Positions 16,299 to 64,000 of a stretch of 64,000 nt of DNA are shown here, in pieces (the first letter of the stretch is position 1; each line of letters opens with the position of its first letter). Made by a program: the position numbers and the translations under genes. The notes under the pieces are model-generated. The model was not told the DNA's origin, did no database searches, and saw nothing but the letters and a program-made list of their open reading frames with translations. Location: contig JBHPHK010000003.1 in NCBI GenBank assembly GCA_042569365.1, forward strand, positions 3,047 to 67,046. The letters are read 5' to 3'. This DNA is from Patescibacteria group bacterium. GTDB taxonomy: Bacteria > Patescibacteriota > JAUYIX01 > JBHPHK01.

Positions 16299-16327
16299 TT
16301 GACAGAGAGAATTTATTGTGATAGAGT
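16299..16327 (+). promoter_or_regulatory. Promoter for the lipoprotein gene at 16443
   Basis: TTGACA-N17-TAGAGT with TGa immediately upstream of the -10. Leaves a leader of about 110 nt ending in ccaAAAGGAGGtaagtcaaATG. Confidence 0.55.
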
Positions 16328-23596: not shown

Positions 23597-23623
23597 AACC
23601 CCTTGACAAAAAAGGGGTTTTAT
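23597..23623 (+). terminator. Terminator hairpin that overlaps the next -35 box
   Basis: AACCCCTT-gacaaaa-AAGGGGTT followed by TTAT. The TTGACA of the next promoter spans the stem-loop junction. Confidence 0.55.
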
Positions 23624-23631
23624 GCTAAGTT
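23603..23631 (+). promoter_or_regulatory. Promoter for the 23821-25967 operon
   Basis: TTGACA-N17-TAAGTT with TGc upstream. Leaves a leader of about 185 nt and AAGGAGG 8 nt before ATG 23821. Confidence 0.55.
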
Positions 23632-27659: not shown

Positions 27660-27736
27660 TACCTATTCGACATCGAGCTAGATGATGGCGAATACGCACT
27701 ATTACAAACGAAAAAACCAAAAGGAGGATAATCCTC

Positions 27737-28546
27737 ATGAAAAACGTTCTGATTATCTGTCTGATCGTGCTCACTTCCGTTGTACTCATCGGCTGTAGTG
27801 GAGGAAGTTCCTCCACAGATCCTGGCGGCGGTGGCGATGGTACGGACCTCGGCACAATCACAGAGCTCTATGGCGACAGCGTTCAGCTTCGCCTGGATAT
27901 TGAGCCCTATGCCGAGACCGTATTTACAGTACTGCATCTCTTCGGGTTGAACAGTTGTTCGGCTCCTCTGGAAATTGAAGCTACCTCGCAGACTCCATTC
28001 TCCGATGGCGGATGGACGATGATCTTCGATATTCCTGCCGGGGTTGACCTGTCAGACCTCTGGCGTTTCAACTTCACGGATAATTCCGGCACTCTCTGGC
28101 TGAACGAAGGACTCTGCACCATCCATGCTACTGGCGTGGAAAGTTGGGGAAGTGCTTTTGCTTTCTCAGCCTACGTCGGCAACGAGGGTGATTGCTACAA
28201 CCTTCAGATTGAGGTTTCAGGAACTCCCACCAGAGTCGTCCTGAATCTCGATAACGGAGAGCTGGTCAATCCCATGTATACTCAGATTAACCTCTGGGTA
28301 CCGGGAGCCAGGCTGGAAGTGTTCAGCATGCAGGCTACAAGTCTCGTTAACCTCGGCGACGGAAAATGGGAGATCGTATTTGATCTGCCTACCGAAGCCG
28401 ATGTGGTGCAACGCTGGATGTTCGGATTTGAAGATCCGGGATCCGGTGCCTGGCTGCCGATCAGTGATGATGTCGTAACTTCCGGCTCCATCGTGATCTA
28501 CGGCGGCAATTTCGTCTTCCGCGAGTACTGCGGTTGCGTTCCTTAA
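27737..28546 (+). CDS. Lipoprotein with two tandem beta-sandwich-like repeats (RWxFxF family)
   Basis: 269 aa. Lipobox LIG|C followed by a Gly/Ser linker. Repeats ..GWTMIFDIPAGVDLSDLWRFNFTDNSGTLW...SAFAFSAYVG and ..KWEIVFDLPTEADVVQRWMFGFEDPGSGAW...GNFVFREYCGCVP. Confidence 0.6.
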   Translation: MKNVLIICLIVLTSVVLIGCSGGSSSTDPGGGGDGTDLGTITELYGDSVQLRLDIEPYAETVFTVLHLFGLNSCSAPLEIEATSQTPFSDGGWTMIFDIPAGVDLSDLWRFNFTDNSGTLWLNEGLCTIHATGVESWGSAFAFSAYVGNEGDCYNLQIEVSGTPTRVVLNLDNGELVNPMYTQINLWVPGARLEVFSMQATSLVNLGDGKWEIVFDLPTEADVVQRWMFGFEDPGSGAWLPISDDVVTSGSIVIYGGNFVFREYCGCVP

Positions 28547-41129: not shown

Positions 41130-41385
41130 TATTTATTGAAAATCATGAAGAGGTCCGAATAAATAAGATATGACTCGAAAATTACCCGTCTGCAATGTAT
41201 TCTGATGTTCCGGTCTTTCGAGGAGTAGCTTATTTATGAGGATTGAAGAGTTGCTCGATTTCTTCTCAAAAAACATCTTCTGCGAATCTTGTTGGCTATC
41301 AAACAGGTTAACAGCATTCTTGAGGATGTTTTTTGAGAGACAAGGTTTTTAAGAAATACCATCCGTAATGAGAAATCAGGTAGTG

Positions 41386-41418
41386 AAAAAGCCGCCAGTT
41401 AGACCAGCGGCTTTTTTT
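41386..41418. terminator. Bidirectional terminator
   Basis: AAAAAGCCGC-cagttagacca-GCGGCTTTTTTT. Confidence 0.6.
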
Positions 41419-41428
41419 GGATTCGATA

Positions 41429-45777: not shown

Positions 45778-46845
45778 ATGATAAAATCGCTAATAAAAAG
45801 TAGGGGACTAGTAGCGGCACTTGTGATCGCACTAAGTGCAGCACTACTTCCTCTAGCTGCGGCTCGCGCTGATGCGCCAGCTTTCTCGGCACAAACAGCT
45901 AATCCAATGCCTGGTGATACTTACACTTACGTCGTTGACTATACAAACGATACTGGTGAAGCACTCTTGGCATTCGATGTCGACGTTACTGTAAATACTG
46001 CTGGGTGGACACTTATTAGTGCCACACAGGGTACCTCTCCTGGTACATTGACACCATTAGTTAGTGGAAACACTTTGAAGTTCCGTGGTGGAGCTTTAGC
46101 TATTGCTGCCACTGACAGTATGAGCTTTACAGTTCGTGTTAACGATCCAGTTCTTGATGGAACCAACTTAACCTTTGGTGAAATTTTGACTTCTGCTTTG
46201 ACAGAAAGCTTCAATACCGTTGAAACATACGGCTCAGGAGTTTCTATGCAGATTCATCTGGCTGCTTTGGTTGTAGGTCTCACAGCAGATGACGCTACAC
46301 TCGATGCTGGTCTGACGACTCGTTACCGCTTAAGCGTTGAAAACGTAGGTTCACGAGATGCTTCAAGTTTGGTTTATACAGCAAACCTTTCTAGTCGCCT
46401 GTCTTATGTCCCTGGTTCAGCACAATGGAATGGCGCTCCTTTTGGAGATCCAACAATTGTTGGTAGCCAATTAACCTGGAATGCAGCAAGTCTTGCCGCT
46501 TTCTCAGGTCCACAGGAATTGTCATTCTCAGTACTTGTTTCCGATGCAACACTAGACACTGAAACATTGCAAAATGTTACTGCTGGTGTGATCGGTAATC
46601 AGGGTGTTATCCCTGTAGCAATCTTAGCTGACATGTCAGCTTACGTGGCTGCAGACACAGATCCAACCGACGCGGTTGGTCGCGACCTGACAATTCGCCC
46701 GTTGGCAATTGATGTCACAGGTGGTGGTACTGGAACAGATGACGGTACCTTGCTCGAAACTGGTGTTCCAGCCTTCGCTGCTCTTGCATTCTCTTTGATG
46801 ACTGCAGGTGCTGCCGCTGGTTACGCATTAAGGCGACGCAACTAA
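45778..46845 (+). CDS. Surface protein with DUF11-type repeats and a C-terminal sortase-like sorting signal (LLETG)
   Basis: 355 aa. Signal peptide (..AAARA|DA). PGDTYTYVVDYTNDTGEAL..DVDV.. and RYRLSVENVGSRDAS fit DUF11 repeats. C-terminus LLETG plus a hydrophobic stretch plus RRRN. Confidence 0.65.
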   Translation: MIKSLIKSRGLVAALVIALSAALLPLAAARADAPAFSAQTANPMPGDTYTYVVDYTNDTGEALLAFDVDVTVNTAGWTLISATQGTSPGTLTPLVSGNTLKFRGGALAIAATDSMSFTVRVNDPVLDGTNLTFGEILTSALTESFNTVETYGSGVSMQIHLAALVVGLTADDATLDAGLTTRYRLSVENVGSRDASSLVYTANLSSRLSYVPGSAQWNGAPFGDPTIVGSQLTWNAASLAAFSGPQELSFSVLVSDATLDTETLQNVTAGVIGNQGVIPVAILADMSAYVAADTDPTDAVGRDLTIRPLAIDVTGGGTGTDDGTLLETGVPAFAALAFSLMTAGAAAGYALRRRN

Positions 46846-46895
46846 GTGCTCGACACTTTTGAGTAAACGCAGTTAGACAATTTTAATGTCTAGTG

Positions 46896-46924
46896 AAAAA
46901 TCCCTTGTTTGAGGGGTTTTTTAT
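46896..46924 (+). terminator. Weak intrinsic terminator
   Basis: TCCCT-tgtttg-AGGGG followed by TTTTTT. Confidence 0.45.
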
Positions 46925-46948
46925 TATTTCCAAAAAAGGCAAAAAGAC

Positions 46949-46977
46949 TTGACAAAAACGCAAAATAATGCTAAAAA
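46949..46977 (+). promoter_or_regulatory. Promoter for beta-helix gene 1
   Basis: cTTGACAAAA-N-TGcTAAAAA. Near-identical in layout and sequence to the promoter at 49260. Confidence 0.5.
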
Positions 46978-47073
46978 GTAATGTACTCTTTGACACGGTG
47001 TCTTAGTGTACTATGGAAAAAACAGCTATTTGACAATCCCTATAAACAATCCCTACACACGGAGGACGAAACA

Positions 47074-49101
47074 ATGAAGAAAACTCTGGTTTTTCTCGCA
47101 ACCCTGGCAATTTTGGTGCTGGTGGGACCCACAATGGTGTGGAGCCAACAGCTTCAGAAACATGACCTGAACAGTGAATTTACCGCGAATCGTGCGGAGT
47201 ATGTCCTGGCACAAAGGGGAGTCACGTCTGCTTTTTTTAACCTCTTCGGAAGTCTTGATGAGCGGCAGACGATCCTGGCCGGGAAAATCTGTTTGGAATT
47301 CGAAAATGCCCAAATCGACAGTTTCCTGCAAGCACAGAGAGACGGTTTGATTCCGGCACATGCAGTAATTCCAATGCCGAAAATGCTTTCGGTGCAAATC
47401 ATCGATACGGCCGTGGCTATCAAAGCTGCTGGTCGTGACACACCCAATCCTGATTTGCAGGCGGCCGGCGGTGCTGATAAGCAACTGGCAGGTAGCTTTA
47501 CTCGTCTGGTACTTGCCAGCGGTGAAACTGCCGTAACGGTTGAATACCCGAACGACTGTCCAGGTCTAACATTCCAAGAATGTATGGACGCAAACGAGCC
47601 TGTAGCGGAAGCAGCGGATCAGGATCTTGTAATCATTATTACAGAGCCTAATCCCTTTACCGCTACTACCAAGAGCAGCTACAAGCTCGGCGCCTATGGC
47701 GGCACGATTATCCGTGCCATCAACGGCGGAACTGGAATCAAGTGGACTTACCTTAAATTCCAGTTTGACCATCAGGCGATTTTTGCCAAGTACGGCAAGG
47801 ATTACTCTGGTGCGGTCATCGATCCCGAAGTTAACGGGGCCACGTTCTGCATCGCCGCAGATCTGGGTGCGAACATTATAGTTGAAAACGTCATGCAGGC
47901 CAATGTTGGTGCGACCTCGGCATCCCAGTTTCGGTTCAACAACGTGATTTTCACGAATGTGAACTATGAAACGCAGGATGTGCGAGCCATCGATATTCCG
48001 CAGTTAGCTGCGGGGCAGGTGATTGACTTTACTAACGTCACTGTTAGCGGAGTCAACGCCGGTGACGGTATCGCAATCTACGATGCTACTAACGACGGGA
48101 CGTTTGTTGGTGATAATGTAAGAGTATCCGGAGCCTTTAACCAAGGTTTCTATGCGACTTGCAGTACTTACCTTACGAAGTCTCGTTTCGGCGGAAATTC
48201 TCCAGGCGTGTTTGTTGCAGGAGACTGTAGCGACGCATCGCTGGTGAAATTCTATACTAGCAATAGCATCTTCGATGGCAACGGCCACGGCATACTCTTG
48301 TTTAGTGTCTCAAATGATCCGACAGTTGGCATTTCAATGCCGACGGGTGATAGAGCCTCAATCGAGAATTGTCGCATCCGTTCCAATGGAACGGATGGAA
48401 TCCACACAGACTACTGTGCGAATGTCAATCTCTACGGCAATAACATTGCCCAGAACTTGAATGGTATCTCGTACAATAGCTCGTCTGGGATGATTCATCG
48501 CAACATTTTTACGCAGAACACGTATAATGTCGCGGTAGGATCGTCTCTGGCCGACACCTGCGTTGATTACGGCGTTCCAAATCTCGGTGACGTCACTTTC
48601 TGCGGTTGGAATAGCATCACCAGTAGCCCGGGATCAACTACGCCTACAGTCGATGGCGGATTGATCTGGCTCGATCCAACGGGCGGCGCTACGCTTACTG
48701 CTCACGCAAACTGGTGGGGCGCGTCTGCACGTGACGATCTCGCGACGTATTTCCATCTTGGAGCAGGCTCAAGTGTTGAACTTGATCCGGCGACAACCGG
48801 GAACGTCGAAGTCGGCAAAGGACTTGTTAGTCCTTTAATGTCTGGCGCGGTTGGCGAGCTGGAACTTACCAAAAACGTCGACGGTCTCAATATCGACATT
48901 GTCGATCTGAACTGGACCGATCCACCCACTACAGCCTACGTACGGTGGGGGAATGATCCGTCAACTGTTCGTGCCTCAGGCACGCTGGATCCTATGACCA
49001 ATGGTTTCCTGCAGCAGTTGATTGACGGAGTAGAGACTCTCTACTACGTACGCGTGGATACAGAGCCTTACATCAATCCTGATGAGGCAACTTGTCCGTA
49101 A
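47074..49101 (+). CDS. Large secreted right-handed parallel beta-helix protein (paralog 1)
   Basis: ATG 47074 is preceded by GGAGGA; the track start 46981 lacks support. Signal peptide. Beta-helix repeat stretch NCRIRSNGTDGIHTDYCANVNLYGNNIAQNLNGISYN..., and the LTAHANWWG motif common in NosD-like beta-helix proteins. Confidence 0.65.
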   Translation: MKKTLVFLATLAILVLVGPTMVWSQQLQKHDLNSEFTANRAEYVLAQRGVTSAFFNLFGSLDERQTILAGKICLEFENAQIDSFLQAQRDGLIPAHAVIPMPKMLSVQIIDTAVAIKAAGRDTPNPDLQAAGGADKQLAGSFTRLVLASGETAVTVEYPNDCPGLTFQECMDANEPVAEAADQDLVIIITEPNPFTATTKSSYKLGAYGGTIIRAINGGTGIKWTYLKFQFDHQAIFAKYGKDYSGAVIDPEVNGATFCIAADLGANIIVENVMQANVGATSASQFRFNNVIFTNVNYETQDVRAIDIPQLAAGQVIDFTNVTVSGVNAGDGIAIYDATNDGTFVGDNVRVSGAFNQGFYATCSTYLTKSRFGGNSPGVFVAGDCSDASLVKFYTSNSIFDGNGHGILLFSVSNDPTVGISMPTGDRASIENCRIRSNGTDGIHTDYCANVNLYGNNIAQNLNGISYNSSSGMIHRNIFTQNTYNVAVGSSLADTCVDYGVPNLGDVTFCGWNSITSSPGSTTPTVDGGLIWLDPTGGATLTAHANWWGASARDDLATYFHLGAGSSVELDPATTGNVEVGKGLVSPLMSGAVGELELTKNVDGLNIDIVDLNWTDPPTTAYVRWGNDPSTVRASGTLDPMTNGFLQQLIDGVETLYYVRVDTEPYINPDEATCP

Positions 49102-49158
49102 CGCTTCTTCATCTCCAAAAATGAGCATATTACGTGCTCCTACGTAGGGAATCCTATA

Positions 49159-49203
49159 GGGGGTAAGAACTTCATATGAAGCTCTCTTGCCCCCTATTTT
49201 TTT
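49159..49203 (+). terminator. Intrinsic terminator
   Basis: GGGGGTAAGAACTTCATATGAAGCTCTCTTGCCCCC followed by TATTTTTTT. Confidence 0.75.
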
Positions 49204-49259
49204 ATCCAAATATTTTCTCTTCCACTTAAATTTCGCGCGAATTATTAAGATAAATAACC

Positions 49260-49289
49260 TTGACAAAAGATCAAAAATAGTGTAAAAAT
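49260..49289 (+). promoter_or_regulatory. Promoter for beta-helix gene 2
   Basis: cTTGACAAAA-N-TGtAAAAAT. The leader ends caccaAAAAGGAGGacgattATG. Confidence 0.5.
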
Positions 49290-49392
49290 AAACATCAATC
49301 TCCTGCGCCTGTTTTCAGGTATAATGGGGTTGAGAAAACAGTTGAAATGATCTTTTAGAACTAAATACCAAACACCAAAAAGGAGGACGATT

Positions 49393-51957
49393 ATGAAAAC
49401 GTCTATTCTTCTCAAAGCAGTGCTCATGGCACTGATACTGGTGGTTATGGCACCTATTTTCTGGTGTCTAGACACTGCCAGTGATGACTGTACTCTCGAC
49501 GACTCGATTCGGGCACAAGAAATTCTGTGTGACAGGGGAGTAAAAGACGCTTTCTATGACCTCTTTGGAGGTCTCAATGAGCGCCAAACGCTTCATGCTG
49601 CGCAGATCTGCCTGGACTTCGAACAGGAACAGCGAATACGTTCTGAAGCCGCTTTCAAAGCTGGCTTAATTACGCAAATTCCTACGCCTGTTGCACTCAA
49701 CATGCAAATCATCGACACAGCCGCTGCAATTAAAGCTACTGGTTCTGGAAATCCGAATGTGGAACTTCAGAATACCAATAGCAGCAAAGACAAATGGCTG
49801 GCCGGCATTTTTATCCGATTATTACTTGATGGTGGCGAAACCGCTATCGTCAGGCACTACCCGGGTGACTATGTGAGTGGCGGAACCAAAGTGGCCTATC
49901 TACCATTCCAACAAGCAATCGATGCACTCGAACTCGAAGGTGAAGCAGAGGACAAGGATGTGGTTTTGATTGTAACGGAAGCGAACCCATTTACAGCCAC
50001 TGCTAAAATAGCCTGTGAACCGGGCGCCCACGAGGGCGTGGTGATCAGAACCGTCAACGGCGCAACTGGAATCAAATGGTTTGATCTTCGGTTCGAGTAT
50101 GACCAGGCAGCAAACATTGCCAAGTACGGTAAAACGTTTATGCCCATCATCGACGCCTCGGTCAATGCCGCGACATTCTGTATCACAACAGACTTGAACT
50201 GCAATGTCCGAGTCTCCGGCGTGGATCTTGTCAACGAAGGTGATACGTCTGCAGTGCAATTTCGCTTCTGCAACGTGTACCTGGATGACATTACCAGTTC
50301 GGCGCAGCTCACAACCTTTATTGATATTCCGGACCTCCTAGCGGGGCAGGTTATTGACTTTAAGGATGTGAGGATCAATGGAGTAGCGTCTGGAAGAGGA
50401 ATTCACATTTATGATTCCGATCTAGATGGAACATTCATTGGTGAAGGACTGAACATTAGCGGCACGTTTTCACTGCCGATCCACACGTGGTGCAATACTA
50501 GTATTACCAACTCTAACGTGAGTGGTAATAATGGTGGAGGCATCCGCGTAGATGGATACAGCATGAGCTGTGCTAATACCAATGTCGCTGTGAATCTCGA
50601 TAATGTAGTTATCGATGGCAACAGTTCAGTTGCGCTGATGCTTAGTTTTGTGCAAGACGATGCTGGACTTGGAGAAACCATGCCTAGTGGCGCTAGCGCA
50701 ACTGTTGCGAACTGCAGAATCAGGAGTAACGGTGGCGGTGCCGGTGCAATGATCGACGGCTGTGGCCCCATAAACTTCTGGCGAAACAACATTGGTAAAA
50801 ACAATGTTGGTATCGTCATGGAAGAAACGGCGGGTGACTTCGCACAGAACATTATCACGCAAAATGATAAGGGAATAGTCACGAATACGATTTCGGATGC
50901 CGTGTGGTGTTCACAAGGCCTTGACACGCCGGTTCCCAATTTGGGAGACGACACCTGGTGCGGAGTGAATATCATTGCCGATACGACCAGCCGGCTCATC
51001 GACAACAATTTGAACACCATGCTGACGGCCCACGGCAACTGGTATGGTGATAGTGCTCTGCCTAACCCGAGTGTTTACATGGAAGGCAACGTGGATCTGG
51101 GTACTTCGCTTCCTAATCCGCCTAAAGCAGGCGCGGTAGGGGAGATCGAACTGTCTTTCAATCCTGACGGCGTTAATATCGACATTGTCGATATTAATTG
51201 GGCAGATCCACCGCCTGGCAGTGCCGAAGTCTACTATGGCACCGACCCCTCTCAGGTCAGTGCTTACACTACAGCATTTGGTGTAATGGTAGACGGGCTA
51301 TATCAGTATCCGGTGGACGATGGTAACGTGACGACTTTCTTCAAACGGAAGGAAATCGAGCCTTACTTCGACCCGGACACCGACCCGTGTCCAGGTGACA
51401 CCCAGAGTATTGGAACGCTTCAATACATCGATGGCGTCAAGTCATATGATCCGGATGGTGAAGTCTGGTATATCCAGTGGAAATTCAGCAGTGCTGATGA
51501 TCAAGCTCTCTACGCTGATGGTCCTGCCCGTGCCGGGTACGCCTATTGGTTTGGGGCATTGGAAGAAAAGGGGCAGGCTGTGTTTCCGCTGACGGACATA
51601 AGTCCAGGTGTAGAAATTGAGTTCTGGGATCAGTTGGACCCAAGCAATCCAGTCTATCTGACAGGAAACGTTGTGGTGAAAACTGGCAATCTCAATCTTC
51701 CCTTTAATGGTGTTTACCATTGCGGGGAGTGGGATGGACTGACTCGAACAGAGTGTGAAAGCTTTGTTCCCATCAGTCTGACCGGAAGCACTGAAGTACC
51801 GCTTAACAATCAGCATTCCTTCTTCTTAAATGAAGGAAATCTGCCCTCCTTAGATGGTGACTATGTTATCATCGAGTTGGCAGATGGCATGCTTTTCAGT
51901 GAGCCAATGATTAACTGGACAAGTTCAGGGGTCATGCACATCAACGTGACATTCTGA
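49393..51957 (+). CDS. Large secreted right-handed parallel beta-helix protein (paralog 2, with an extra C-terminal domain of about 180 aa)
   Basis: 854 aa. Colinear with the 47074 protein (shared blocks NPFTAT, GIKW, AKYGK, LAAGQVIDF, NCRIRSNG, VPNLGD, LTAHGNWYG, AGAVGEIEL, NIDIVDINWADPP, EPYFDPD). Confidence 0.65.
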   Translation: MKTSILLKAVLMALILVVMAPIFWCLDTASDDCTLDDSIRAQEILCDRGVKDAFYDLFGGLNERQTLHAAQICLDFEQEQRIRSEAAFKAGLITQIPTPVALNMQIIDTAAAIKATGSGNPNVELQNTNSSKDKWLAGIFIRLLLDGGETAIVRHYPGDYVSGGTKVAYLPFQQAIDALELEGEAEDKDVVLIVTEANPFTATAKIACEPGAHEGVVIRTVNGATGIKWFDLRFEYDQAANIAKYGKTFMPIIDASVNAATFCITTDLNCNVRVSGVDLVNEGDTSAVQFRFCNVYLDDITSSAQLTTFIDIPDLLAGQVIDFKDVRINGVASGRGIHIYDSDLDGTFIGEGLNISGTFSLPIHTWCNTSITNSNVSGNNGGGIRVDGYSMSCANTNVAVNLDNVVIDGNSSVALMLSFVQDDAGLGETMPSGASATVANCRIRSNGGGAGAMIDGCGPINFWRNNIGKNNVGIVMEETAGDFAQNIITQNDKGIVTNTISDAVWCSQGLDTPVPNLGDDTWCGVNIIADTTSRLIDNNLNTMLTAHGNWYGDSALPNPSVYMEGNVDLGTSLPNPPKAGAVGEIELSFNPDGVNIDIVDINWADPPPGSAEVYYGTDPSQVSAYTTAFGVMVDGLYQYPVDDGNVTTFFKRKEIEPYFDPDTDPCPGDTQSIGTLQYIDGVKSYDPDGEVWYIQWKFSSADDQALYADGPARAGYAYWFGALEEKGQAVFPLTDISPGVEIEFWDQLDPSNPVYLTGNVVVKTGNLNLPFNGVYHCGEWDGLTRTECESFVPISLTGSTEVPLNNQHSFFLNEGNLPSLDGDYVIIELADGMLFSEPMINWTSSGVMHINVTF

Positions 51958-52022
51958 CGTCTTCTCCTGAATTGGGGAGTAATCTTACTTCTCAATTCTA
52001 CTTACTAACCCAGGGGGTTGGA

Positions 52023-52064
52023 ACTTCTTTCGAAGTTTCAACCCCCTTTTTCTTTTACATAATT
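52023..52064 (+). terminator. Strong intrinsic terminator
   Basis: GGGGGTTGGAACTTC-ttt-cGAAGTTTCAACCCCC followed by TTTTTCTTTT. Confidence 0.85.
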
Positions 52065-52233
52065 TATGCTTAGATGAAGCAAGAGGGGAGTCACAGTATT
52101 TTGCCTCCTTCTGATGCTCCCTTCTAAGCGTTGCATTCTCTGATTTCGTAAGGCATGGCAGTGCCTTACTCCTCCTTCACCTCCTAGAATCAGTTAATGC
52201 TTTCGCTTGTTCACGCCTATCCCGAGGTGGAGT

Positions 52234-52272
52234 TTCATCCGAGACTCCACCTCCTTTTATATGGGTTAATAA
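52234..52272 (+). terminator. Terminator-like hairpin inside the gene-free region (or an SD-sequestering hairpin if read on the minus strand)
   Basis: GAGGTGGAGT-ttcatccgag-ACTCCACCTC followed by CTTTTATAT on the plus strand. Confidence 0.4.
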
Positions 52273-52449
52273 ACAATTTACGCGTCAAAGAAACACTCTA
52301 AGATACACCAAACTCAGATAAATCATATATAGAGCTTCGCATAAGGTACATTGTGCGACACAACATATATAGTTTCTGGGGCGTATTCTCCTACGTCCCC
52401 CGCCGAATAGGTATGTCGAGTTTGTTTATTTGTAATTACTCCATAACAA

Positions 52450-53136
52450 CTAGAGATTTATCTTAGGAGGTAGAGAATCTTGGGTATCCTGATATCTCTT
52501 CGGGTCATCAATAGTGTGAAAAGGACCATCGTATACATAGGCGTAAACAAGTTTTTTGGCAGCAAGTGAGGGGAATACATCAACTTCCAACGAACTTTTT
52601 GTGTTTTCGGGTATATGGGCGAATATGTCAGGTTCACACATGTATGGTCCCCCAACAGACACCCAGCCAGGTTCTGACCCAACTTTCTCTGTAAATTTAG
52701 TAACGCACATCGAATCCTCTGAAAACTCAACAAATCCATAGTCAGTAGAATCTTTCAGGTACTTCACTGGAAAAGTGACGACCCCTCCCCTCTCCAAGTG
52801 AAATTTTTTAAGAGCGTCCATGTCGATCCGCTTAATCTCATCAGCATTGGACACGCAAAATGTCTCGCTAATCTCATCACGCATAAGATCCAATGCTCCA
52901 CCCGTTCCGCGTTGCTCGGACTCCCCTATTATCGTGAAGTCATACTGAGTTTGTAGGGGCTCATATTGTTCAACAAAAACATTTTTCGTAATAACTATAA
53001 CGTCGTGCCCGCTGAGCTGTTCCAATAAATACGAAATCACCGGCCTACCGTTGATCGGCATCATCGGCTTGGAAATGGTTTTAGTGAGCGACTTGAGGCG
53101 TTCGCCCGATCCGCCTGCGAGAAGAATGACTTTCAT
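52450..53136 (-). CDS. Sugar-phosphate nucleotidyltransferase (NTP_transferase family)
   Basis: 228 aa. MKVILLAGGSGERLKSLTKTISKPMMPINGRPVI, the G-x-G-x-R-L signature of sugar-1-P nucleotidylyltransferases. Confidence 0.75.
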   Translation of the reverse strand: MKVILLAGGSGERLKSLTKTISKPMMPINGRPVISYLLEQLSGHDVIVITKNVFVEQYEPLQTQYDFTIIGESEQRGTGGALDLMRDEISETFCVSNADEIKRIDMDALKKFHLERGGVVTFPVKYLKDSTDYGFVEFSEDSMCVTKFTEKVGSEPGWVSVGGPYMCEPDIFAHIPENTKSSLEVDVFPSLAAKKLVYAYVYDGPFHTIDDPKRYQDTQDSLPPKINL

Positions 53137-53144
53137 TACTCACA

Positions 53145-53153
53145 ATTATAGCA
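53145..53153 (-). promoter_or_regulatory. Extended -10 element (minus strand TGcTATAAT) ending 8 nt before ATG 53136
   Basis: The minus strand reads ggtcTGcTATAATtgtgagtaATG. No SD. Confidence 0.5.
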
Positions 53154-53167
53154 GACCAAATCATCAT

Positions 53168-53208
53168 AAAGAAAAGAAACGAGCCCGGCGGTTAATGCCA
53201 CCGGGCTC
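53168..53208 (-). terminator. Intrinsic terminator for the 53336-53980 gene
   Basis: The minus strand reads GAGCCCGG-(12 nt)-CCGGGCTC followed by GTTTCTTTTCTTT. Confidence 0.7.
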
Positions 53209-53335
53209 TATTGCTAACGTGTACGAACTTGCCCATTGCAGGCTTGGAGGAGGATGTAAGCTTAGCAAGAGTAATGGGGAGAGAGAAGGGTTATCGCTCT
53301 TACTATTCTGTAGCTTACTTATATTATACAAAATA

Positions 53336-53980
53336 CTACTCAAAACAGCTAGACGGTTCTCGGCCCGTGCTTTCTGCCTCCTCTCTACTATCAAAATAGA
53401 CACGGTTTTCTTCTTTGATGCGATCTGCGAAAGAGCAATTCTCAACGGGATGATAGAGCTTACTGTTTTTACTGGCTACAAAACCTTTAGAGGATGAAGG
53501 ATTTATAGCAGACGCACATTCAGCATCTGTCGGTTCAGGAATGATTTGACTGGGCGTAAACAAAAAACGATAGACTAGCTTGTCAGACCGAAGCGCAAAC
53601 TTAAAGAGTCCATCCTCAAGCTCCACGGCATTCGCTTGAAAAGTATCGCTCTCAATATCTAGAACGCGTGAATCTGAATAATACAGCGCAGCTTCTCCTA
53701 GGAGTGTTCCGGATATTTCTTGAGAGTCCATATCATAATTTAAAACCACCTCTATCTCTTCAGGCACATCTTCTGCAAAGTTAGAGACAGTCTCAGGAGG
53801 CTTCAGGAAAAATAATATTAACAAAAGCGCAAATAAAACAATGATCAGAGCTCCCAGAGTCAGGCCCAGAAAAAACACGTTTTTGCGAGTGTACAAAAAT
53901 TCCGAGATACCATTCCCCTTTTTAGGTTTCTGATTTACCTTCAGGGACTTGCTAATTTTCCCAAAATATGTTTTCATCAT
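53336..53980 (-). CDS. Membrane-anchored hypothetical protein with a C-terminal sunset/Ada-metal-binding-like motif
   Basis: 214 aa. One TM helix. C-terminus SKLYHPVENCSFADRIKEENRVYFDSREEAESTGREPSSC resembles the YHxxxC...N..F.S..EA motif. Confidence 0.45.
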   Translation of the reverse strand: MMKTYFGKISKSLKVNQKPKKGNGISEFLYTRKNVFFLGLTLGALIIVLFALLLILFFLKPPETVSNFAEDVPEEIEVVLNYDMDSQEISGTLLGEAALYYSDSRVLDIESDTFQANAVELEDGLFKFALRSDKLVYRFLFTPSQIIPEPTDAECASAINPSSSKGFVASKNSKLYHPVENCSFADRIKEENRVYFDSREEAESTGREPSSCFE

Positions 53981-56186: not shown

Positions 56187-56215
56187 TTGACAAAAGCCCT
56201 CTTATCTGCTAAGGT
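56187..56215 (+). promoter_or_regulatory. Promoter for the SWEET-like gene
   Basis: TTGACA-N17-TAAGGT with TGc upstream. The 85-nt leader ends aaccaAAAAGGAGGtttacggccATG. Confidence 0.6.
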
Positions 56216-62482: not shown

Positions 62483-62633
62483 TAATGTTGTTCCAAACTT
62501 CTCGAAGTATATCTGATATATAGATTAAAATCAAGCCTTTTTAGTGACTTTAGGGGTTTTTGAATACTGCTAATAATAGGCTTAATAGAGCTATTATAGA
62601 CGCGTCTACGAAAGCAATATTTACCAAAAACTC

Positions 62634-62662
62634 TTGACAAAATATGACTTTTCGAGTACAAT
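62634..62662 (+). promoter_or_regulatory. Promoter for the amidase gene
   Basis: TTGACA-N17-TACAAT. Confidence 0.6.
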
Positions 62663-62718
62663 ACTCCGATTTTTCAAAGAGTTTGGAAATCAACCTAAAT
62701 CCTTAATTCTAGTCAAAT

Positions 62719-64000
62719 ATGACTTCCCTGGTAAAACAACTGAAGAAAGTCACAGAAAGCGTATCCGCTCGTAAGTTTATTGTGGCCGGAATTGTCATTG
62801 TGCTGGCGATTGCGCTGATCCAACCTAATGGTGATTGGTCCAATACTAGCTTGGGTAGTTTGATCAGTTTCCTGCGCGGCAAGTCTGAATTAAACATTCA
62901 GGATATTAGCGTTCAGCTCAGCGATTTGCAGGCGGTAAAGTCTGATGTGCAAAAGCGTTCTAAGGTTTTCAATCTCAAGGAAAGTTTCACTACTTTGATT
63001 ATCGAAGGTCAGTGGCAGACAGATGAAACCGGTCTAGAGCTTCGTTATCAGGACGCAGAGGGCGTCTGGTCTAAAGTTTATGCGCTGCAATTGGCGGATG
63101 GCGATGAAGGAATCGACGGCGTGCAGACTGCGCAATATACAGAGCCGTTCATCGTAAGCTCGGCGACCGCTTTTGAGTTGATCTGGGACACGACTGTTAA
63201 ACAAGCAGATAAGCTCAATATTCAGACAGTTGACCTAAGTGAAGGTCCGCAAATAAGCGCGCTTGATGCCAAATCTGTATCCGGTGTTATTACCCGTGAA
63301 CAATGGGGCGCGGATCCAGCCTGGATGACTTGGACTCCGCAATATTCAAATATTAAACTGGCGATTATTCATCATACGGCAGGTTCTGCAGATGCTGATC
63401 CGGCAGTGACAATGCGTAGTATTTATTTCTACCATGCTGTTACTCGCGGCTGGGGCGACATCGGATACAATTATGTAGTCGATCCGCAGGGACGCATCTA
63501 TGAAGGTCGCGATGGCGGCGACAATGTGATCGGCGCGCATGCGCTCGGTTTTAACACAGGTTCCCTGGGTATTTCCCTCATGGGTAATTATGAAAATGAT
63601 TCTGTAACGTCGGCAGCTACCAGTGCCATTGCAAATATCATCGGACAACGTTTTGGTCAGGAAAATATCGATCCGCGTGCGCGCATAAGCTTCAACGGAA
63701 AAACTCTTTATACGATTAGCGGCCACCGCGATACCAAAGCGACTGCCTGCCCTGGCGCCAACCTCTATGCGCAGTTGCCAAATATCCGTCATAAAGCGGC
63801 TTTGCTTGTTTCTGGTGCACTGCCGTATGCTGACGGTTCGTTCATCCGTGGTTCTGGTCCAACGGTCTATTACATCCAGAACGGAATTAAGCGCGCTTTC
63901 ACACACCCGGACACGTTTAAGTCTTGGAATCCAACAGGCATCATCAGCGCGCAGGATTATGAAATCGCGCTGTACCCTAGCGGCGTAAAAATGGGATTTG
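62719..64000 (+). CDS. N-acetylmuramoyl-L-alanine amidase (amidase_2/PGRP domain), 5' partial: runs off the window
   Basis: Open from ATG 62719 to the window end (427 codons); not in the ORF track because it has no stop in the window. TM anchor, then REQWGADPAW, IIHHTAG, RGWGDIGYNYVVDPQGRIYEGR, GAHALGFNTGSLGI and SGHRDTKATACPG. Confidence 0.8.
   Translation, partial: MTSLVKQLKKVTESVSARKFIVAGIVIVLAIALIQPNGDWSNTSLGSLISFLRGKSELNIQDISVQLSDLQAVKSDVQKRSKVFNLKESFTTLIIEGQWQTDETGLELRYQDAEGVWSKVYALQLADGDEGIDGVQTAQYTEPFIVSSATAFELIWDTTVKQADKLNIQTVDLSEGPQISALDAKSVSGVITREQWGADPAWMTWTPQYSNIKLAIIHHTAGSADADPAVTMRSIYFYHAVTRGWGDIGYNYVVDPQGRIYEGRDGGDNVIGAHALGFNTGSLGISLMGNYENDSVTSAATSAIANIIGQRFGQENIDPRARISFNGKTLYTISGHRDTKATACPGANLYAQLPNIRHKAALLVSGALPYADGSFIRGSGPTVYYIQNGIKRAFTHPDTFKSWNPTGIISAQDYEIALYPSGVKMGF

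Follow-up and report, generated by a model that had tools for sequence, protein, structure and literature searches.

The largest non-coding gap in a 64-kb stretch of a Patescibacteria chromosome (the whole stretch analyzed, hereafter the window) raises the question of whether it encodes an RNA and, if so, from which strand. The gap, 51958-52449, measures 492 nucleotides (nt) from stop to stop, or 402 nt once the first terminator is past. It lies between a plus-strand beta-helix gene (49393-51957) and a minus-strand gene for a nucleoside diphosphate (NDP)-sugar nucleotidyltransferase (NTP transferase; 52450-53136), and the two stops face each other. An earlier note on this DNA had already singled it out as the largest gap, which our analysis bears out: the seemingly larger 863-nt gap at 62483-63345 contains a plus-strand open reading frame (ORF) from 62720 that runs off the window. 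The window is chromosomal, as lepA, murJ, priA, gltX, and two tRNAs are present, and is otherwise densely packed with genes. We tentatively propose that about 52066-52262, between two plus-strand terminators (T1 and T2), encodes an orphan, structured plus-strand small RNA (sRNA) of about 200 nt, a reading that we place somewhat below an even chance. What we observed directly is a motif cluster, a lack of coding potential, the statistics of the fold, the accessibility of the motifs, and the quality of the terminator. The transcribed strand, the expression, and the mechanism of the candidate RNA are what we infer, and strand, expression, and function go beyond what sequence alone establishes.

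Motif cluster, fold, and coding potential of the gap

The plus strand of the gap carries four CCTCC pentamers, at 52104-52108, 52171-52175, 52180-52184, and 52250-52254, together with CTCCC at 52117-52121 and TCTCCT at 52387-52392. The features that the earlier note described here all exist, including the four pentamers, which it had placed at 52114, 52181, 52190, and 52260; all of its coordinates exceed the actual ones by about 10 nt. Four same-strand pentamers in 151 nt are the sole maximum of the window, the maximum anywhere else being two. Window-wide, such a cluster was reached in 32 of 1,000 first-order Markov simulations, and when the observed number of motifs was placed at random, P was 0.026. 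Counting both strands, the window has 16 copies of the heptamer CCTCCTT (AAGGAGG on the minus strand), three of them in the gap region; three copies within 150 nt have a P value of ~0.002 under random placement. Among the 13 copies outside the region, 7 are Shine-Dalgarno (SD) sites of real genes and 6 lie elsewhere. The CCTCC cluster exceeds chance, though not overwhelmingly.

The canonical bacterial 16S rRNA 3' end reads ...GAUCACCUCCUUUCU-3', and the tracts GCCUCCUUCU, UCCUCCUU, UCACCUCCU, and CACCUCCUUU match 7 to 10 nt of it. These tracts are complementary to the AAGGAGG(U) SD consensus of the genome; the gene starts of the window carry the complementary SD (A)AAAGGAGG(U), 4 to 9 nt from the ATG. 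A motif-rich convergent gap was also seen between rplU and recR in a Parcubacteria relative (GCA_964644035.1; L016/L017, 3712-3809), with five CCTCC and four GGAGG in about 100 nt. The motifs there form nested CCUCC:GGAGG hairpins and are all paired, contrary to those of the window element.

The plus strand of 52066-52262 has a minimum free energy (MFE) of -74.0 kcal/mol, against -45.7 +/- 3.9 for shuffles (z of ~-7), and the minus strand has one of -66.8 kcal/mol, against -48.5 +/- 3.8. Besides, the plus-strand fold is sharply defined, with an ensemble diversity of 9.6 against 43 +/- 13 for shuffles (0 of 200 as low) and a P(MFE) of 8%; on the minus strand the diversity is 23.5 against 44.7 +/- 14.2, and 8.5% of shuffles are as low. 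A separate scan gave z = -5.7 for the plus and -3.9 for the minus strand, and 52060-52223, from which T2 is excluded, gave -4.9 and -2.4, respectively, while the other intergenic gaps of the window ranged from +0.9 to -5.7. About five G-U pairs of the hairpins H2, H3, and T2 turn into A-C mismatches on the minus strand. Another convergent gap, 41130-41428, is also strongly structured on the plus strand (z = -5.15). At its end (~41392-41418) there is a terminator-like hairpin, GCCGCCAGTTAGACCAGCGGC, with TTTTTTT behind it, and a possible 24-codon ORF starts from an ATG at 41237.

The features of the gap are collected in Table 1. The apical loop of H2 holds GCCUCCUUCU, with the CCUCC of 52104-52108. 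H3 bears an apical stem-loop, GTAAGGCA/TGCCTTAC, at 52148-52169 and a 17-nt internal loop, UCCUCCUUCACCUCCUA, at 52170-52186, in which two CCUCC tracts (52171 and 52180) lie. In the plus-strand ensemble, each of these three CCUCC tracts has a probability of 0.98 of being unpaired, whereas for the complementary GGAGG tracts of the minus strand it is only 0.13 to 0.62. The 3' arm and tail of T2, CACCUCCUUU, equal the canonical 16S rRNA 3' end over up to 10 nt, the tail CTTTTATAT extending to 52262. T2 is comparable in strength to genuine gene-end terminators of the genome. Few hairpins in the 40 kb scanned look like a terminator of this strength, and those listed besides T2 sit at the 3' ends of long ORFs.

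Table 1. Features in and around the gap between the beta-helix and NTP-transferase genes (window coordinates)
Feature	Position	Strand	Details
T1, terminator of beta-helix gene 49393-51957; 16-bp stem, then TTTTTCTTTT	52012-52057 (hairpin 52012-52047)	+	-27.7 kcal/mol; z = -6.3
Candidate structured RNA, ~197 nt (H1, H2, H3, terminator T2)	52066-52262	+	5' end not defined
H2, 10-bp stem AGAGGGGAGU/GCUCCCUUCU, two G-U pairs	52082-52125	+	-18.1 kcal/mol
H3, interrupted 26-bp hairpin	52126-52208	+	-28.8 kcal/mol; z = -5.45
T2, 13-bp stem, loop AUCC, tail CUUUUAUAU	52224-52262 (hairpin 52224-52253)	+	-23.4 kcal/mol on plus strand, -20.1 on minus strand
Micro-ORF 1, MKLHLGIGVNKRKH (14 codons)	52194-52238	-	SD AUAAAAGGAGGU, consensus context, spacing 11 nt
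Micro-ORF 2, MPYEIRECNA (10 codons)	52124-52156	-	Nearest GGAGG 14 nt upstream, outside the usual 4-9 nt
Micro-ORF 3, GTG start, VTPLLLHLSINYVKEKGG (18 codons)	52038-52094	-	GAAGGAGG 9 nt upstream; end within T1
AT-rich spacer	52263-52449	-	Probable 3' untranslated region (UTR) of NTP-transferase gene 52450-53136; fold z = -1.1 to -2.3

The gap is non-coding, with stops in all six frames. Three minus-strand micro-ORFs pointed out by the earlier note are present. Micro-ORFs 1 and 3 lie in one frame with one TAA between them, and after the TAA there is a 51-codon stretch that ends in micro-ORF 3. This shared frame, which alone among the six has just one stop, has a codon-usage log-likelihood ratio of -0.17. 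Such a value belongs to off-frame sequence: real genes reach +0.24 +/- 0.09, and just 0.1% of their in-frame windows are equally low. The 51-amino-acid stretch had 0 matches among 1.84 billion representative proteins, and neither Pfam nor NCBIfam matched the stop-masked frame translations of both strands. Furthermore, no remnant emerged when the ORFs of the window were all compared with the region by tblastn, and none of six small ORFs of 20 to 37 amino acids was present in a protein collection that holds the flanking proteins. The earlier note had allowed for a degraded gene remnant behind the motif density; with tblastn, Pfam/NCBIfam, the 51-amino-acid search, and codon usage all negative, a pseudogene or gene remnant was rejected. 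An alternative code with TGA as a sense codon, suggested by a minus frame in which all stops after the first TAA are TGA, was likewise rejected, as the rest of the window has long ORFs under code 11. As for a type I toxin-antitoxin peptide, no hydrophobic helix was found in MKLHLGIGVNKRKH, MPYEIRECNA, VTPLLLHLSINYVKEKGG, or a 32-amino-acid MQRLEG... peptide, all of which are short and charged.

Searches for related RNAs returned nothing for the region. At gathering thresholds, Rfam 15 identified two tRNAs only in the window, and no RsaE/RoxS, LhrC, or other sRNA family; at E <= 10 on 51950-52500, it gave only spurious eukaryotic small nucleolar RNA and microRNA matches far under their thresholds. 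The earlier note had seen no sign of transfer-messenger RNA, RNase P, signal recognition particle, or 6S RNA, and Rfam and ARAGORN agree, with no match in the region for these, riboswitches, or ribozymes. A phage database had no match for the region or the surrounding 12 kb. The element is real and unusual, an orphan that is structured and non-coding and stands outside every curated family.

A candidate plus-strand sRNA and the points that weigh against it

The sharp fold, the three tracts in loops, the terminator, and the absent coding signal are explained jointly if the element is a plus-strand sRNA. The earlier note had offered three readings, and the first of them, a plus-strand RNA with anti-SD tracts that ends in a terminator, is the best supported: its fold is the sharper one, three of the four CCUCC tracts are unpaired, and T2 is of terminator grade, but no promoter was found for it. 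The candidate RNA could be made as an independent sRNA, or it could arise when transcription of the upstream beta-helix gene reads through or when the 3' UTR of that gene is processed. Its predicted fold would expose the three 16S-3'-end-like pyrimidine tracts GCCUCCUUCU, UCCUCCUU, and UCACCUCCU in the apical and 17-nt internal loops, and the fourth 16S-like copy, CACCUCCUUU, would serve as the 3' arm and tail of the intrinsic terminator. The exposed CU-rich tracts may pair with the purine-rich SD regions (consensus AAAAGGAGGU) of target mRNAs, and such pairing would block 30S binding to these mRNAs, as LhrC and RsaE/RoxS do in Firmicutes. Most plausibly, by analogy, the element acts like the CU-rich-loop, SD-occluding sRNAs of that phylum.

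Patescibacteria, or the Candidate Phyla Radiation (CPR), have tiny genomes and few regulators, and RNA-based regulation has hardly been described in them. A search of the literature on patescibacterial sRNAs gave no relevant result, and to our knowledge no trans-acting sRNA of these bacteria has been described. If the candidate is a genuine sRNA, it would suggest that the CU-rich-loop, SD-occluding strategy of Firmicutes also exists, or arose independently, in the CPR, and it would offer a way into the study of how uncultivated symbionts control translation. Since the candidate comes from a single genome, its practical value is that of a target for metatranscriptome mapping.

The closest functional parallels are found in Firmicutes, where sRNAs present C-rich loop regions for pairing with SD sequences (PMC4409812; PMC4132741). 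In Listeria monocytogenes, LhrC1-5 carries three CU-rich sites that are redundant, and the terminator contains one of the three (PMC4132741). LhrC and the window element are thus both small structured RNAs with redundant CU-rich sites, here three CCUCC tracts in loops and a fourth in the terminator. The two show no sequence or covariance-model similarity, and they differ in the motif, which is UCCC in LhrC and CCUCC(UU), a longer anti-SD copy, in the window. Furthermore, the candidate RNA of the window is about twice as long, is present in a single copy in the window, has no promoter identified, and belongs to a patescibacterial rather than a Firmicute host. RsaE/RoxS pairs with SD sequences through several C-rich regions (PMC4409812). 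Several C-rich regions in loops, complementary to SD sequences, are a trait that the element has in common with RsaE/RoxS, FsrA, RNAIII, and SprD, and the 3' Rho-independent terminator, here T2, is another one that it has in common with RsaE/RoxS. In contrast, RsaE/RoxS is conserved throughout the Firmicutes and has an Rfam model, to which the window region has no match. Among the traits of CU/C-rich-loop sRNAs, the element has the loop tracts and the 3' terminator but neither a promoter of its own nor a defined 5' end.

A broader role is also conceivable, although we consider it improbable: a trans-acting RNA with four near-full-length copies of the 16S rRNA 3' end could act as a general SD competitor that, instead of controlling a few targets, titrates the ribosome-binding sites of mRNAs and sets global translation capacity or, in mirror image, a minus-strand RNA with four consensus SD sites could sponge 30S subunits. 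If true, either version would represent a new way to control translation globally, in organisms that have very few regulators.

Several observations weigh against a plus-strand sRNA. The promoters of the genome are textbook sigma-70 promoters, TTGACA-N17-(TGn)TAnnnT (e.g., 16299-16327, 23603-23631, 56187-56215, and 62634-62662), and both tRNA promoters are also of the sigma-70 type (TTGAAA-N16/17). No TTGACA-N16-18-TAnnnT is present on the plus strand from 50975 to 53818, the best plus-strand candidate being GTTTCA-17-CATAAT, which has 8 of 12 positions and lies within T1. Read-through from the beta-helix gene should be rare, because T1 is very strong. As for the strand, a gap with a minus-strand tRNA likewise scored better on the plus strand, and therefore fold energy alone cannot fix the strand. 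Real SD sites typically have an A-rich flank, whose complement would read like the U-tail of T2. Conservation evidence of any kind is lacking in Rfam, the window, viral and metagenome sequences, and the loci of relatives: the window has the element only once, scans of IMG/VR viral contigs with two patterns gave 0 matches, and nhmmer of the region against 18 loci fetched from relatives gave none. The pattern CCTCCTTCACCTCC-N30-60-CCACCTCCTTT had 5 matches in JGI metagenomes, all of them by chance in Gly-rich or low-complexity coding DNA. Finally, an RNAduplex scan of the translation-initiation regions of the window found no stand-out target and no separation from background.

A case elsewhere in the window calls for caution on terminators beside SD-like sequences. 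The SD of the gene at 27737 lies in a 5-bp hairpin, GAGGATAATCCTC (27724-27736), and its reverse complement, together with the A-rich flank, scores as an antisense "terminator."

T2 could also belong to a cis-acting plus-strand attenuator. Its 5' arm, GAGGUGGAG, has an alternative partner, CUUCACCUC, at 52175-52183, which as an antiterminator would compete with CUCCACCUC for that arm and set the level of antisense transcription entering the convergent NTP-transferase gene. A direct repeat, CTTCACCTCCT/CTCCACCTCCT, both copies of which are complementary to GAGGTGGAG at 52224-52232, is in line with such a switch, as is the fact that downstream on the plus strand there is only the antisense of the NTP-transferase gene. 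However, the terminator dominates completely in the plus-strand ensemble, with a T2 stem pairing probability of ~1, and neither a promoter, a known ligand, leader-peptide logic, nor an Rfam riboswitch match was found. We regard attenuation as very unlikely.

Minus-strand alternatives

A functional minus-strand RNA was the basis of the other two readings of the earlier note. Transcripts that read through from the NTP-transferase gene would carry four consensus SD sites (SD1 to SD4), which might drive the micro-ORFs of 14, 10, and 18 codons or bind the 30S subunit or the 16S rRNA 3' end unproductively, as a stand-by site, stabilizer, or sponge. Besides, CUCCACCUC (52232-52224) could pair with SD1 or SD2 (GGAGGUGAAG) and couple both; this alternative pairing was detected in the repeat analysis (I10, D3). 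Read-through into the motif region is possible because no convincing minus-strand terminator was found after the NTP-transferase gene. Two hairpins lie in the spacer there, GGGGACGUA-GGAGAA-UACGCCCC at 52399-52377 and an imperfect, AU-rich one that precedes GAUUUAUCUGAGUUU. The start context is suggestive as well: AUAAAAGGAGGU followed by AUGAAACUC (Met-Lys-Leu) resembles the genuine starts AUAUAAGGAGGU and CCAAAAGGAGGU...AUGAAACUC. The high proportion of real gene starts among the AAGGAGG heptamers outside the region (7 of 13) and the purine-rich composition of the strand (60%), as in the mRNAs of the genome, point in the same direction.

Nevertheless, the SDs that have a start are sequestered. 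As the earlier note had seen, both the SD and codons 2 to 5 of micro-ORF 1 lie inside the T2 hairpin (-20 kcal/mol on this strand), SD1 being unpaired with p = 0.20; SD4, that of micro-ORF 3, is unpaired with p = 0.13. Conversely, SD2 and SD3 are accessible but lack a start codon at 3 to 13 nt, the sole ATG being 14 nt off. The SD-to-start spacings of the four sites are 11, none, 14, and 9 nt, against 4 to 9 nt for the genes of the genome, and a start in range at two of four sites is the level expected by chance (an estimate from a start-codon frequency of about 3/64). A micro-ORF array lacks what the genes of the genome have, an accessible SD 4 to 9 nt from a start. The off-frame-like codon usage of the shared frame and the absence of homologues weaken it further, and the peptides are neither hydrophobic nor otherwise recognizable. 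The fold is much less defined than that of the plus strand, and no promoter lies immediately upstream: the minus strand of the gap has no canonical promoter, and the TTGACG at 52288 sits 21 nt from TATAAA. Taken together, a functional minus-strand RNA appears unlikely to us.

STAB-SD or stand-by SD elements, e.g., the cryIIIA 5' stabilizer of Bacillus thuringiensis, lie in 5' UTRs and protect the downstream mRNA. SD2 and SD3, which have no usable start, could similarly bind the 16S rRNA 3' end untranslated, but downstream on the minus strand of the window there is only the antisense of another gene.

The earlier note had also likened the minus strand to CsrB/RsmZ-type RNAs, which would sequester a CsrA-like protein via GGA motifs in hairpin loops. 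The likeness to CsrB/RsmY/RsmZ is that the minus strand is GGA containing and hairpin rich, with loop GGA motifs at 52391 (GUAGGAGAAU) and 52240 (CUCGGAUGAA); the core of CsrA ligands selected in vitro (SELEX) is GGAUG, to which CUCGGAUGAA is close. However, GGA is barely enriched, with 12 copies in the 402 nt against 7.3 expected, and lies mostly outside hairpin loops, in which only 3 copies were found. No Csr/Rsm family of Rfam matched at E <= 10, and the csrA search that the earlier note had advised, here limited to the 64 kb of the window, found no csrA-like ORF. This comparison is not supported, and we give a protein-sponge RNA next to no weight.

Genomic island and neighboring features

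The element lies inside a lineage-specific island (45778-53136) between the syntenic blocks gltX-M23 and methyltransferase-L27-S41. The island contains a DUF11 protein, two paralogous right-handed beta-helix proteins (42% identical), and the NDP-sugar synthase. Among 5.8 billion proteins, the NTP transferase and the beta-helix protein had no homologues except themselves and one paralogue. A scan of genome contigs with the NTP transferase gave only relatives at 33% identity or less, and a contig look-up by exact protein found nothing. Even for the conserved S41 peptidase, the best relatives, in Uhrbacteria, Andersenbacteria, Moranbacteria, and Parcubacteria, are only 48 to 52% identical. The blocks kept in relatives are S41...L27-methyltransferase-~200 amino acids and M23-gltX, and the stretch in between differs.

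This setting bears on a reading without any dedicated function, in which the gap is a spacer in a fast-evolving surface-protein and glycosylation island. T2 would then act as a back-up tandem terminator and keep any residual read-through of the beta-helix operon from entering the NTP-transferase gene in antisense, the hairpins would have been left by recombination, and the CCTCC cluster would be a relic or due to chance. Both the location between syntenic blocks and the lack of homologues of the island proteins are consistent with an inert spacer, as are the lack of a promoter on either strand and the window-wide p of only ~0.03 for the pentamer cluster. In addition, T1 and T2 have short similar segments in common (D2, D4), and the rplU-recR gap of the relative is likewise built from CCUCC/GGAGG hairpins. 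Like tandem intrinsic terminators, T1 and T2 are strong plus-strand hairpins with a U-tract between convergent genes, but their stems are separated by about 175 nt of sequence that is itself highly structured and motif rich. An inert spacer leaves unexplained the heptamer cluster and, outside the terminators too, an exceptionally stable and well-defined fold, both for H3 (Table 1) and for 52060-52223 as a whole, and the motifs are kept specifically in unpaired positions. Furthermore, an inert spacer would have to account for the largest gap of 64 kb in an otherwise compact genome. On balance, we find the absence of any dedicated function doubtful, and the plus-strand sRNA is the reading that we tentatively retain.

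An 11-nt inverted repeat, TTACTAACCCA/TGGGTTAATAA, at 52002-52012/52262-52272 encloses T1 to T2 exactly (271 nt). A miniature inverted-repeat transposable element was considered and rejected: an 11-nt inverted repeat is near chance level in 470 nt (roughly 1 expected, an estimate), and the window contains no second copy.

On the other side of the NTP-transferase gene, a strong minus-strand intrinsic terminator at 53181-53208 lies between it and a 214-amino-acid gene (53336-53980); therefore, the NTP-transferase gene is its own transcription unit. A promoter-like sequence, TTCTTT-17-TGnTATAAT, precedes it at ~53145-53173.

In the Parcubacteria relative with the rplU-recR gap, two contigs, L016 and L017, agree in their called genes up to ~13.1 kb and then diverge beside rpmA. 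Past this point, L017 contains about 20 small ORFs, including ones with NinG, RNase_H_2, and dGTP_diPhyd_N domains, and has the look of a phage-like insertion in a CPR genome.

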